Assembly: GCA_046753765.1 (NCBI GenBank) | Contig: JBHHUN010000008.1 | Location: 1 to 39,508, forward strand | DNA length: 39,508 nucleotides | Direction of reading: 5' to 3' | From: Candidatus Dojkabacteria bacterium | GTDB lineage: Bacteria; Patescibacteriota; Dojkabacteria; B142; OLB20 | In this document: piece after piece, positions 1 through 3,355 of the stretch | Layout of the letters: the number at the start of each line of letters is the position of its first letter | How positions within the stretch are numbered: the first letter of the stretch is position 1 | Notes under the pieces: generated by a model | Databases searched by the model: none | Told to the model about the DNA's origin: nothing | Seen by the model: only the letters and a program-made list of their open reading frames with translations | Made by a program: the position numbers and the translations under genes

Positions 1-155
1 CGCGAAAAAAACGTCGCCAGGTAATGACTACCAAGGTGATTAAATGCAGTATCACCCAGGGCACAGCTTGGGATCATCATTAGTACTGCCAGTAATCGAC
101 AAATCCTCTGGCGAGGTCTGCGACTTGTTTCAGGAGGAGTATTGTGTTGCTCCAT
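1..155 (-). CDS. Possible hypothetical protein, 5' part only (runs off the window)
   Basis: ATG at 155 opens MEQHNTPPETSRRPRQRICRLLAVLMMIPSCALG..., with no stop before the window edge. Confidence 0.4.
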   Translation of the reverse strand, partial: MEQHNTPPETSRRPRQRICRLLAVLMMIPSCALGDTAFNHLGSHYLATFFS

Positions 156-271
156 AATATACTTGGTATATCACTATTGTACCATCTCGTATGTACAGAT
201 ATGAAGATATTTCAGTCAAATTGCTTGTGTCTAGGCAAGATATAGTGGAGAGAAGAAGCTATCCTACTCTG

Positions 272-343
272 CTGGTCGGACAGGACTCGAACCTGTAATC
301 TCCCGGTTAACAGCCGGGTGCAATACCATTATGCTACCGACCA
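272..343 (-). tRNA. tRNA-Asn(GTT)
   Basis: Cloverleaf TGGTCGG...CCGACCA-G, anticodon arm CCCGG-CTGTTAA-CCGGG, T-loop TTCGAGT; no encoded CCA. Confidence 0.95.
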
Positions 344-374
344 ACAGAATAGACAATTTGTTCTCTCATGATGT

Positions 375-430
375 AGCCGGGTTCAATGCCGTTATGGCTA
401 TTTATTCCAACGTAGTCGGAACCGACCGAC
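375..430 (-). repeat. Degenerate copy of the 5' half of tRNA-Asn carrying a palindromic insertion (405-421)
   Basis: agccgggttcaatgccgttatg..accgacc matches tRNA agccgggtgcaataccattatg..accgacc; interrupted by ttccaac-gta-gtcggaa. Confidence 0.8.
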
Positions 431-454
431 AATCAGAACTAGCTCCAACCCTAT

Positions 455-480
455 AAAATAAAAAATCCCCTTTCGGGGAT
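455..480 (-). terminator. Intrinsic terminator (3:4 hairpin of the attenuator)
   Basis: Minus strand reads ATCCCC-GAAA-GGGGAT followed by TTTTTATTTT. Confidence 0.85.
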
Positions 481-511
481 CATTCTGACTTCAACAACCA
501 AAATAATCCCG

Positions 512-559
512 CTAGGAGGTATTATTCTGATTATTGTTAGTTACTTTTATTGTCTTCAT
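512..559 (-). CDS. Asn-rich leader peptide MKTIKVTNNNQNNTS
   Basis: ATG at 559, TAG at 514-512; 5 of 6 consecutive codons are AAC/AAT. Confidence 0.75.
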   Translation of the reverse strand: MKTIKVTNNNQNNTS

Positions 560-568
560 GCTGCTCTG

Positions 569-597
569 ATTTAACCATCTGACAGGTCGTTTGTCAA
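569..597 (-). promoter_or_regulatory. Sigma70-type promoter for the leader/tRNA-Asn transcript
   Basis: TTGACA (597-592), 17 nt spacer, TTAAAT (574-569), 9 nt before the leader ATG. Confidence 0.65.
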
Positions 598-770
598 CTA
601 ACCCCATCCTCTACCAACTTTCTGTGAGTAGAACTCTCACACAAACTGCAAAATGAGATCAAATTTTCCTACATTTTTACCATACATCTTATTGACTTAT
701 GATATACACCCCTGGTATATTGTTGTCTCCTGTGGCAAGCCGGATCTCCTTCCATTTTTACAAAACTATC

Positions 771-2501
771 ATGAGGCAGCTACTAAGGCTGTTCTACCAG
801 TTTAACCTTCGTTATAAAAAGGCCTTCATCAGCGGGTTAAGTTTGACTGTGCTGGGCGCAATCGCCTCTAACTTCTCAAATTTCTTTTATAAGTTTTTCG
901 TTGATTCTCTGCAGGGATTTAAGCTTGAAGATACGCTGATAATCCTAGGTGGACTTGTTCTGGTGAGAATAGTGGTCCTGATCCTTCAGAATACTGCTGA
1001 CATAGTTAGCGATATCTTCATTATCCGGGCAGCACGCGATGTAAGACTTAAAGTATTCTCACATCTACACAAACTCGATTTCAGCTTCCATGCTAACAAA
1101 CACAGTGGTTCGCTGATTTCTGCAATGAAGAGAGGCGATGGGGCCTTCTTTAGCTTCAATATGCAAATCAATCGCAATCTTCTCAGAGTAATTATCGATT
1201 TCGGCTTCATTGTAATCACATTTTCATTGATTGATGTCAGGTTCATGTTCGTGGTACTTGCGATAGTCGCCGTCAATCTAATTATCGCACGATTCCTGGT
1301 AAGGCTGAACATTGTTAAAAGAAAGCTGTTAAACAAAGAGGAGGACGACATCACTGCAATCATCGTCGACAATATGATCAACTACGAAACCGTGAAGTAC
1401 TTCGCCAAAGAGGGATTCGAGGAGAAAAGAATGGAAGATCAGTATAGCAGATGGTACACGGTGATTTGGGAATATGCAAACACCTTCCGACTCATAAATG
1501 TTTCAACAGGATTTCTCTCGATAGTTGGATCAGCAATCGTGATCCTTTTGGCTCTGTTCAAAACAACGGCTGGAAACATGTCACTTGGCGAATTTATTTT
1601 AGTGGTTACATTCCTAGCCACATTCTTTCCTAGACTTACCGAAATGATCTATCAGTTTCGCGAGATCGCGAAGCACTACACTGATCTCGAGAAGTACATT
1701 GGACTTCTTAATGAACCTGTTACTGTCGTCGAAGCTAACAATGCCCTAACCCTCAAAACTATCAAGGGTAAGATCCAATTTAAAGATGTTCACTTCAAAT
1801 ATCACAAAAGAGAGAATATTCTCAATAACTTTAATCTGGTCATTAAGCCTGGCGAGTCGGTTGCATTTGTCGGAGCATCGGGTGCCGGAAAAACAACACT
1901 CGTTAAACTTATTCTCAGGTTCTACGACATTGACAAGGGCACAATCCTGATTGACGGAAAAGACATCAGCAAGGCGACCAAGCAAAGCCTTCGTAATAGC
2001 ATTGGAATAGTCCCGCAAGAGCCAGTGTTGTTTAACAACACCATTGCTTACAACATAAGCTATGCAACTACTAAGGCAAACAAGAGTGGAATAGTGAACG
2101 CTGCAAAACTGGCAAACCTGCACGATTTTATCGACTCCTTGCCAGAGAAATATGACACTTTTGTTGGGGAACGAGGTATAAAGCTTTCCGGCGGACAGAA
2201 ACAACGGCTCGCAATCGCGCGGATGTTCATCGAAGATCCACCAATTATTGTCTTTGATGAAGCTACCAGCCAGCTGGACTCTGAGTCAGAGAAACTCATC
2301 CAGGACGCATTCTGGAGAGTTGCAAAAGATAAGACAACGATTATTATCGCTCACAGACTTTCAACTATTATGAAGGTCGACAGGATTATTGTCCTCAAGG
2401 ATGGGAAGATAGTTGAACAGGGTAAACATGAAGAACTAATCAAAAAGAAAGTCGGGGTCTATAAGGGGTTATGGGAGTTACAGCGCGGGGGGATGATATA
2501 A
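771..2501 (+). CDS. ABC transporter, fused permease/ATP-binding (ATM1/MsbA-like exporter)
   Basis: N-terminal TM helices, Walker A GASGAGKT, LSGGQKQR signature, DEATS, IAHRLST; start may be 699. Confidence 0.92.
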   Translation: MRQLLRLFYQFNLRYKKAFISGLSLTVLGAIASNFSNFFYKFFVDSLQGFKLEDTLIILGGLVLVRIVVLILQNTADIVSDIFIIRAARDVRLKVFSHLHKLDFSFHANKHSGSLISAMKRGDGAFFSFNMQINRNLLRVIIDFGFIVITFSLIDVRFMFVVLAIVAVNLIIARFLVRLNIVKRKLLNKEEDDITAIIVDNMINYETVKYFAKEGFEEKRMEDQYSRWYTVIWEYANTFRLINVSTGFLSIVGSAIVILLALFKTTAGNMSLGEFILVVTFLATFFPRLTEMIYQFREIAKHYTDLEKYIGLLNEPVTVVEANNALTLKTIKGKIQFKDVHFKYHKRENILNNFNLVIKPGESVAFVGASGAGKTTLVKLILRFYDIDKGTILIDGKDISKATKQSLRNSIGIVPQEPVLFNNTIAYNISYATTKANKSGIVNAAKLANLHDFIDSLPEKYDTFVGERGIKLSGGQKQRLAIARMFIEDPPIIVFDEATSQLDSESEKLIQDAFWRVAKDKTTIIIAHRLSTIMKVDRIIVLKDGKIVEQGKHEELIKKKVGVYKGLWELQRGGMI

Positions 2502-2964: not shown

Positions 2965-3022
2965 TGAGTCGGGCGAGACTCGAACTCGCAACCAATCCCG
3001 ACTAGGGTCGGGACTGCTCTAC
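2965..3022 (-). repeat. tRNA-Lys-derived copy with the anticodon arm replaced by a palindrome
   Basis: 2965-2996 is identical to 3284-3315; then cccgac-tagg-gtcggg replaces ggcttaaaaggcc, followed by actgctctac. Confidence 0.9.
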
Positions 3023-3262
3023 TAATTCACTCACCTTCTTCCTGCTCTTCCATCTTTTGATCTGAAGCTCTCGCTTTTTGGCTTCGGTTTGCGAAACAAT
3101 TTCCTCTGAATACACTAACTCCCAATCTCCTGGTTGTTTCCGTGTGTACTTACTCTTATGAAGTCCTTTCTGATGCTCTGACAACCGCTTCTGAAGGTCA
3201 GTAGTGCTTCCGATATAGTACTTGTCTATGACAGCATTGTAGAGGATATATACGTGGAAGAT
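3002..3262 (-). CDS. Small GIY-YIG nuclease (UPF0213-like); start codon uncertain
   Basis: HVYILY..YYIGSTTDLQKRLSEH..SKYT..W.LVYSE..EAKKRELQIKRWKSR; the expected start position reads ATC and the in-frame TTG at 3310 lies inside the tRNA. Confidence 0.88.
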   Translation of the reverse strand: MFHVYILYNAVIDKYYIGSTTDLQKRLSEHQKGLHKSKYTRKQPGDWELVYSEEIVSQTEAKKRELQIKRWKSRKKVSELVEQSRP

Positions 3263-3283
3263 CTTAATGAGGTAAAAAATAAG

Positions 3284-3355
3284 TGAGTCGGGCGAGACTC
3301 GAACTCGCAACCAATGGCTTAAAAGGCCACTGCTCTACCATTGAGCTACCGACCC
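3284..3355 (-). tRNA. tRNA-Lys(TTT)
   Basis: GGGTCGG...CCGACTC-A, anticodon arm GTGGC-CTTTTAA-GCCAT, TTCGAGT; no encoded CCA. Confidence 0.95.

Follow-up and report, generated by a model that had tools for sequence, protein, structure and literature searches.

The pheST attenuator of Escherichia coli combines a leader peptide rich in cognate codons, pheM, with helices 1:2, 2:3 and 3:4 and an intrinsic terminator, and the Rfam families Trp_leader, His_leader, Leu_leader and Thr_leader cover the leaders of the trp, his, leu and thr operons. To our knowledge, leader-peptide attenuation acts on operons for amino-acid biosynthesis and on a small number of synthetase genes. In the general model, as outlined in passages of two sources, ribosome stalling at control codons chooses between an antiterminator and a terminator (PMC1183508, PMC3082878). 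Parts of further sources report a T-box responsive to tRNA-Asn (asparagine tRNA) in Clostridium acetobutylicum (2012, via PMC4206432) and His leader peptides ahead of hisS paralogues in bacilli (PMC2965389). Here we analysed a short element on the minus strand of the first 39.5 kb of a Candidatus Dojkabacteria contig (C8, JBHHUN010000008.1; "the window" below means this whole stretch), which belongs to an assembly of 1.26 Mb in 69 contigs that is 94% complete. The element lies directly upstream of a tRNA-Asn(GTT) gene. Judging from comparison with related genomes, we consider it highly probable that it is a ribosome-mediated leader-peptide transcription attenuator that senses Asn-tRNA(Asn) and that gates, and feeds back on, the tRNA-Asn gene.

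Like pheST, the locus has a leader with cognate codons, three helices and a terminator, and aminoacylation machinery as its apparent target; in related genomes, asnS too is found behind an Asn leader. It is unlike pheST in that the tRNA is the first controlled gene, and in the window the only visible one, and also in its Asn codons, its leaderless-looking open reading frame (ORF) and its Patescibacteria-like host. The trp, his, leu and thr leaders would share its ribosome-stalling logic, but the element has no Rfam match and its putative target is a tRNA gene rather than amino-acid biosynthesis. As with the T-box of C. acetobutylicum, genes for Asn-tRNA(Asn) supply would be turned on when charging of tRNA-Asn falls; whereas the T-box works without translation, by direct binding of uncharged tRNA, a translated leader would here sense charged tRNA through the speed of the ribosome, and the tRNA gene itself would be controlled. 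The bacilli leaders likewise place an attenuator before an aminoacyl-tRNA synthetase gene outside the Proteobacteria, evidence that leaders of this kind arise repeatedly; they differ in amino acid, phylum and sequence, no tRNA gene is involved in those described, and the relevant passages mention no attenuator ahead of a tRNA gene (PMC2965389). In titles and the starts of abstracts (full-text search, most subscription journals and supplements outside), we found no description of an Asn leader peptide, of a leader-peptide attenuator before a tRNA gene or of attenuation in the candidate phyla radiation/Patescibacteria. Leader-peptide attenuation is known already; what appears new here is a tRNA gene as the target, and we claim no first. 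The tRNA-Phe of E. coli with a Phe leader was considered as a precedent and rejected, as the K-12 sequence at pheV (pheV only) places a promoter immediately upstream of the tRNA and contains no leader ORF.

The locus, followed from the promoter to the tRNA, consists of these features:

592-597, minus strand: -35 hexamer TTGACA, by direct reading; the -35/-10 pair is similarly placed in relatives
569-574, minus strand: -10-like hexamer TTAAAT, 17 nucleotides (nt) past the -35 hexamer and 9 nt ahead of the ATG, by direct reading
512-559, minus strand: leader ORF of 15 codons plus TAG, MKTIKVTNNNQNNTS, likely leaderless
521-538, minus strand: control codons AAC AAU AAU (CAG) AAU AAU, of which bases 536-521 double as segment 1
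492-510, minus strand: segment 2, in which 507-492 pairs with segment 1 and 510-498 is the 5′ arm of the antiterminator, from folds and the covariation of helix 1:2
476-488, minus strand: segment 3, which serves as the 3′ arm of the antiterminator, shares bases with the 5′ arm of the terminator and pairs with 510-498 when a ribosome mask covers the Asn codons
453-481, minus strand: intrinsic terminator, with stem 481-475/470-464, loop GAAA and a U tract to 453, from a terminator scan and folding
344-452, minus strand: spacer with a decayed tRNA-Asn fragment at 375-396 and no convincing promoter, from comparison with relative G016 and a promoter scan
271-343, minus strand: tRNA-Asn(GTT) of a divergent type (type B) with no CCA encoded, from ARAGORN and Rfam (tRNA, 71.5 bits)

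The original prediction, made from the letters of the window alone, had named a TTGACA-17-TTAAAT promoter on the minus strand, a 15-codon ORF upstream of tRNA-Asn and Asn control codons. Direct reading found all of the bases of the two hexamers (597-592 and 574-569) with 17 nt between them, and the ORF at 559-512 from ATG to TAG. Five of the 15 codons of MKTIKVTNNNQNNTS, read at 538-521, are for Asn, a cluster of codons for the amino acid to be sensed. In a genome-wide scan for short ORFs followed by a terminator, this leader was the only candidate with five of seven codons for one amino acid, though such scans of the window's own genome are crude and give a rough background only, the five-of-seven scan having missed leaders on contig C15. 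No Shine-Dalgarno motif was found ahead of the leader ATG.

All three mutually exclusive helices that had been predicted are present, by reading and by folding. Helix 1:2 brings together segment 1 (536-521) and segment 2 (507-492) in 16 bp that include G-U pairs, and the antiterminator, helix 2:3, joins GGGAUUAUUUUGG (510-498) to UCAGAAUGAUCCC (488-476) in 13 bp. The 3:4 terminator and its U tract, GAUCCCC-GAAA-GGGGAUU (481-464) followed by UUUUUUAUUUUAU (to 453), were read directly and also found by the terminator scan. One detail goes beyond the first account: the GGG (510-508) that opens segment 2 pairs with CCU in the last codons of the leader ORF. The last sense codons of many relatives contain CUCC, which pairs with GGG(AG) in the same way, so that helix 1:2 caps the key bases of the antiterminator. 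The UAG stop codon stands 1 nt ahead of GGGAUU, placed such that a terminating ribosome would mask segment 2. As free RNA, the leader adopts helix 1:2 and the terminator together (-33.2 kcal/mol; z = -3.58), and none of 200 shuffled sequences was as stable. An Rfam scan at the gathering score returned tRNA as the only family in the window and none in the leader, and at E<=10 on window positions 1-800 nothing credible appeared in 445-600, T-box and curated leader families included.

The element recurs in relatives. BLAST of window positions 620-260 against 60 related genomes found the tRNA, with the adjoining leader region also present in four of them. Reading the 350 nt upstream of 28 tRNA-Asn loci revealed an Asn-rich short ORF with a terminator in 11, plus a degenerate twelfth. 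A covariance model built from three well-aligned leaders (R1) recovered all 11, and a second model (R2) was rebuilt from those; MAFFT alignments of the leaders were structurally inconsistent and were replaced by re-alignment to R1. R2 matched 17 of the 24 genomes of the window's order (E<=0.01), 13 of which, on inspection, have an Asn leader beside tRNA-Asn; the leaders matched in G005, G009, G014 and G015 are instead rich in other amino acids. Among 151 sampled genomes of the class, 32 were matched (E<=0.001), concentrated in the window's own order and in family f13 (19/27), with none in the sampled members of families f9 (0/46), f5 (0/11) and f8 (0/9). A phylum-wide sample gave two matches in 151 genomes, both in the window's own class. 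ARAGORN placed a tRNA-Asn downstream of 13 of 16 newly fetched leaders; at the other three, the tRNA-Asn is cut by a contig end, the sequence ends 209 nt past the leader, or a synthetase gene stands instead. The inspected class matches leave out G032, G077 and a second match in G057. The leaders read out number 32; 29 have tRNA-Asn downstream, and 28 were aligned to R2. Short ORFs of Asn codons with covarying stems upstream of tRNA-Asn, which the original prediction expected related genomes to hold, are therefore found there.

In the alignment of 28 leaders to R2, 86.1% of the cells in paired columns were paired, compared with 44-57% when the partner was slid by one to three columns; changes on both sides were seen in 21 of 26 pairs, and none of 500 shuffles reached any of five measures. 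The 11-sequence set gave 87.0% paired cells, 18 of 26 pairs changed on both sides and again 0/500 shuffles. These alignments were fitted to the structure of the model and the counts are biased towards it, but the slid controls, together with terminator arms that differ outright between genomes (GGGAU/AUCCC, GGAGAC/GUCUCC, CGGGUAUUU/AAAUACCCG and GAGAGGUAG/CUAUCUCUC), argue that the covariation is real. For the terminator helix, 94.9% of cells were paired, and six of seven pairs showed two-sided changes. In helix 1, the columns that vary correspond to third bases of Asn codons: where AAC and AAU alternate, the partner in segment 2 changes from G to A (alignment columns 24/82, 27/79, 30/74 and 39/65), and the two A's of the Asn codons are nearly invariant across the aligned leaders. 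This is the pattern expected of a sequence that both encodes Asn and pairs. Conservation and covariation across relatives support the predicted attenuator layout of the trp/his/pheST type, with Asn control codons ahead of tRNA-Asn.

The 32 leaders, of 13-19 codons, hold four to nine Asn codons each (mean 6.6; 150 AAU and 60 AAC), while Asn makes up 4.6% of the long ORFs of the window's genome. In 30 of the 32, a -10-like hexamer, mostly TATAAT or TAAAAT, ends 5-9 nt ahead of the start codon, spacing that suggests a leader ORF that is leaderless or nearly so. A Shine-Dalgarno-like motif was seen in only one of the 32 leaders. The asnS and gatC genes of the window's genome likewise begin a few bases past a TATAAT box.

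We modeled the ribosome as a mask over the A-site codon plus 12 nt. Masking the first or the middle Asn codon gave the antiterminator as minimum-energy fold, and masking the stop codon gave the terminator, in 11 of 11 leaders, the outcome anticipated for folding with and without a ribosome. When all 32 leaders were folded with the middle Asn codon masked, the terminator was gone from the full-length minimum-energy fold in 19, against 2% of controls with shuffled linkers. Because pairing registers shift between sequences, a count of the antiterminator by alignment column was replaced by register-free folds. Folded up to the start of the terminator 3′ arm, 31 of the 32 leaders had at least 60% of the 5′ arm paired upstream, at energies that were on average 3.8 standard deviations below those of shuffled linkers (mean z = -3.8).

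The first intact gene downstream, expected about 110 nt away, was confirmed by ARAGORN and Rfam as tRNA-Asn(GTT), 116 nt from the end of the U tract. It has a full cloverleaf with a GUU anticodon, U1-A72, G2-C71, G3-C70 and discriminator G73. A promoter scan of the region between 455 and 343, where an independent promoter had been a concern, called none that could start upstream of the tRNA; the sole promoter-like site on the minus strand (356-328) has its -10 inside the tRNA. In relatives, the gap between U tract and tRNA is at most 20 nt at 9 of 29 loci (2-18 nt) and at most 35 nt at 16 of 29, leaving little or no room for a tRNA promoter, so that transcription can reach these tRNAs only through the attenuator.

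Several further observations concern the spacers and the surroundings of these tRNAs. In the window, positions 375-396 share 20 of 22 bases with the D-arm/anticodon stem of tRNA-Asn in G016, and partial tRNA-Asn copies ahead of the intact gene also occur at loci L050, L017, L018 and L104; such loci seem prone to duplication or insertion. Three loci of family f13 (L092, L097 and L102) share a conserved hairpin-forming element of ~45 nt in long terminator-tRNA spacers (97-286 nt). At L017 (G015) and L022 (G005), two tandem elements of ~90 nt with a conserved hairpin replace the leader before a UG-type tRNA-Asn (see below), with a copy of the first ~16 bases of the tRNA between them at L017 and related pieces at L013 and L024. 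The tandem element may be mobile, or it may be a regulatory RNA of another kind.

From this arrangement we infer where transcription starts, that the leader is translated, that transcription terminates at 460-453 and that the switch responds to a shortage of Asn-tRNA. Transcription would begin a few bases ahead of the AUG, so that the 15-codon leader would be translated from a message with little or no untranslated sequence at its 5′ end. With ample charged tRNA-Asn, the ribosome would reach the UAG, one base ahead of GGGAUUAUUUUGG, and mask segment 2; segment 3 would then pair with segment 4 and RNA polymerase would terminate at ~460-453. If the leader were not translated, segments 1 and 2 would pair and the terminator would form as well. 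When charged tRNA-Asn is scarce, the ribosome would stall on the five Asn codons and cover segment 1 and the capping CCU. Segment 2, thus freed, would pair with segment 3 as the antiterminator, and polymerase would continue into tRNA-Asn. The tRNA made in this way reads the very codons that sense it, which would close a negative feedback loop. Such a loop, with a shortage of Asn-tRNA raising transcription of the tRNA, was the central proposal of the original prediction, and the conserved layout and its covariation support it.

Since the window is the first 39.5 kb of its contig, window position 1 is a contig end, and the contig stops 270 nt past the tRNA. One further ORF begins there:

3-155, minus strand: start of the next ORF, 51 amino acids visible with a hydrophobic N-terminus, running off the contig end; two weak promoter-like sites lie before it

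The visible part of this ORF has no Pfam match and no features of an aminoacyl-tRNA synthetase or Gat protein. In relatives, the gene after the tRNA is asnS at nine loci, an Asp-tRNA(Asn) ligase gene at one, gatC-gatA at two and a gene for a GatA-like amidase at one, so that an Asn-supply gene comes next at 13 of 29 loci; the remaining loci have unrelated genes or genes without an identified family. The ORF after the tRNA at L021 looked GatC-like by eye and was dropped, having no Pfam match. Two leaders do without the tRNA: in G007 an Asn leader lies directly ahead of asnS (NF003037, 494.9 bits against a cut-off of 414), and in G090 one lies directly ahead of a class II synthetase of the Asp/Lys/Asn type whose N-terminus resembles those of AsnRS. 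The original prediction had named a co-transcribed asn gene as one of the findings that would count against it. Such genes do exist in relatives, at the 13 loci above, but the tRNA stays the constant downstream gene, the only one common to 29 of the 32 leaders. It is therefore a target, and the lineage probably has others besides. On these gene orders the leader element is the predicted switch of a small Asn-tRNA(Asn) supply regulon, with the tRNA gene its most constant member.

The window's genome encodes AsnRS, an AspRS of the Asp-tRNA(Asn) type, GatA, GatB, GatC and an AsnB-like protein; AsnA was looked for in this genome and none was found. No leader was found at its asnS (contig C32) or gatCAB (C22), which have leader-less promoters of their own. 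At a contig edge (C43:7-801, plus strand), there is a second AsnRS-like gene, represented by 265 C-terminal amino acids that match an asparagine-tRNA ligase model at 323 bits. The genome may thus have two AsnRS.

Several observations weigh against an attenuator of the tRNA gene as we propose it. Among the sequencing runs listed as containing window positions 200-700 there are DNA runs of one hydrothermal-vent metagenome sample, which may be the source, and none of RNA. The -10 hexamer in the window, TTAAAT, is weak, and the promoter scan of the window made no call for the TTGACA/TTAAAT pair because the second position is T and not A. In the absence of a Shine-Dalgarno motif, translation of the leader would depend on leaderless initiation, for which the spacing is our guide. 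Under the mask of a stalled ribosome, 13 of the 32 leaders retain the terminator in their full-length minimum-energy fold. Counted by alignment column, five antiterminator pairs were paired in 65.7% of cells compared with 57-60% after sliding, a comparison affected by the shifting registers, and the other pair counts lean towards the model to which their alignments were fitted. Eight or nine tRNA-Asn genes of the UG type in relatives stand without a leader, so leader control is dispensable. Finally, the 116 nt between terminator and tRNA at the window locus may hold a weak promoter that the scan did not recognise.

The most serious alternative, which we nevertheless think improbable, grants that the attenuator is real and makes protein genes (asnS, gatCAB, aspS) its main target, with the tRNA a passenger and the true target beyond the contig end or lost. 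The Asn-supply genes at 13 of 29 leader-tRNA loci, the leaders of G007 and G090 with no tRNA between leader and synthetase gene, and the end of the contig 270 nt past the tRNA all fit this account, which is compatible with control of the tRNA. Nevertheless, the tRNA is the sole gene shared by 29 of 32 leaders, and at least ten loci have a next gene unrelated to Asn, such as one for an SDR-like or membrane protein (judged by reading). Moreover, asnS and gatCAB in this genome have their own leader-less promoters, and the ORF at 155-3 looks like neither a synthetase nor a Gat protein. A stand-alone small gene or small RNA, made of the short ORF and terminator, beside a tRNA with its own promoter would render the adjacency meaningless for regulation. 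The distance of 116 nt would allow this, and a terminated transcript of ~100 nt could be stable, as reported for the trp leader RNA rnTrpL of Sinorhizobium. We regard it as very unlikely given the gaps of merely 2-18 nt at nine loci, the lack of a spacer site in the promoter scan that could start upstream of the tRNA, and a conserved antiterminator overlapping the terminator, which a plain terminator would not need.

We give still less credence to a switch that works without translation, in which the RNA binds uncharged tRNA-Asn in the manner of a T-box, or a metabolite, and the reading frame is incidental. The run of Asn codons is also a helix arm, so conservation of its nucleotides alone is no proof of coding. 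Against such a switch, no T-box or other Rfam family was found at the gathering score, nor convincingly at E<=10; the frame, the spacing of the start codon and the position of the stop beside segment 2 are kept in 32 leaders; variation falls at third codon positions; and in sister leaders the runs of Tyr, Met or Val agree with the genes downstream. Chance pairing of an AT-rich short ORF with a terminator could be entertained in a genome of 42% G+C, as AAU-rich sequence readily pairs with AUU-rich sequence. However, recurrence with covariation in more than 30 genomes, along with the standing of the leader as the only five-of-seven candidate in its genome, has already refuted this explanation to the point where almost nothing is left of it. 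The attenuator that senses Asn-tRNA(Asn) and acts on tRNA-Asn is the reading we retain.

The tRNA behind the leader is one of two types. The window's genome has two tRNA-Asn(GTT) genes, the window copy with acceptor sequence UGGUCGG and a canonical copy on C17 with UCCGAGG, which has no leader and directly follows an ORF. All leader-linked tRNAs begin with UG (28 distinct sequences, fetched loci), whereas none of 17 loci of the UCC type had a leader match near the tRNA at E<=1, the one weak match, at L199, lying ~950 nt downstream of the tRNA there. Both types occur together in many genomes of the order; in family f13, BLAST found a UCC-type gene in only one of five genomes examined. Both types keep U1-A72 and G73. 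According to parts of two sources, U1-A72 is recognised by GatCAB, and the anticodon and G73 confer Asn identity (PMC4206432, PMC9976931); passages of the second also describe G2-C71 as a pair that is conserved among bacterial tRNA-Asp species and that AspRS uses as a minor determinant, and U1-A72, G2-C71 and G3-C70 as elements of tRNA-Gln (PMC9976931). The acceptor end of type B (U1-A72, G2-C71 and often G3-C70) resembles that of tRNA-Gln and carries the minor tRNA-Asp determinant G2-C71. As speculation, a UG-type tRNA that feeds the AspRS/GatCAB route would fit these acceptor features and the linkage to gatC-gatA; the commoner linkage to asnS fits it less. A fuller scenario, which we offer as doubtful, is that the canonical UCC tRNA is constitutive, while the UG type is made only upon stalling at Asn codons and is preferred by a non-discriminating AspRS with GatCAB, such that the attenuator switches the cell from charging of free asparagine by AsnRS to tRNA-bound synthesis. 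If so, the first step of an amino-acid pathway would be an inducible tRNA gene.

Similarly built leaders with other control codons were also found, and with them leader-peptide attenuation seems a general device in the window's lineage, as far as can be told from sequence. L047 (G014:C10:8775-8880, minus strand) has the leader MTVNLTNNNYYYYYAFAG (NNNYYYYY) and a terminator before a gene for a biopterin-dependent aromatic amino acid hydroxylase (Biopterin_H, 116.9 bits), and looks like a Tyr-sensing attenuator for the synthesis of Tyr from Phe. At L049 (G005:C1:408475-408578, plus strand), the leader MKNYTLIQKFMMMYSPPGS (MMM) and a terminator precede a gene whose product has the C-terminal domain of a SAM hydroxide adenosyltransferase; the locus resembles an attenuator that senses Met and controls a SAM-cleaving enzyme. 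A Val-run leader, MNQIFLNNNVVVVVEPRLSGG (VVVVV), precedes an ORF without a Pfam match at L051 (G018:C2:75901-76020, plus strand), and L045 and L048 (G009:C4 and G015:C39) share a conserved leader, MNKQIFVKIFNYYYSH (NYYY), before the gene for a 482-amino-acid protein with a weak match to GCS2 (glutamate-cysteine ligase family 2). Weaker leader-like elements were picked up in the window's own genome, on C2 and C15. At L032 (C2:58933-59030, plus strand), a leaderless-looking ORF, MDHTYLKHKHTLYS, and a terminator lie just upstream of the gene for a class I LysRS (tRNA-synt_1f, 283 bits); with only two Lys codons in MDHTYLKHKHTLYS, a role as a Lys leader is uncertain. L033 (C15:20392-20491, minus strand, plus ~170 nt after it) has tandem leader-like ORFs rich in Tyr and Trp, MNTNTNNTYWYIC and MVTRINISTEYYYWYSYSHWGVF, each followed by a hairpin and a U tract, with a 445-amino-acid ORF downstream that has no Pfam match.

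Elsewhere in the window, a small ORF at 3002-3310 on the minus strand (..YYIGSTTDLQKRLSEHQKG..), adjoining tRNA-Lys at 3283-3355, resembles what we take to be a GIY-YIG-type nuclease domain.

If the proposed mechanism is correct, the attenuator would act as a homeostat working directly on one tRNA species and would be a rare case of gene-specific transcriptional control of a bacterial tRNA. Ultra-small uncultured bacteria of the Patescibacteria-like kind are thought to have few regulators; they would then use ribosome-mediated attenuation, for Asn, Tyr, Met and Val, seemingly on leaderless messages. The combination of the leader, a divergent tRNA-Asn and asnS or gatC-gatA would also give a testable way into the question of why both routes to Asn-tRNA(Asn) are kept in many bacteria.

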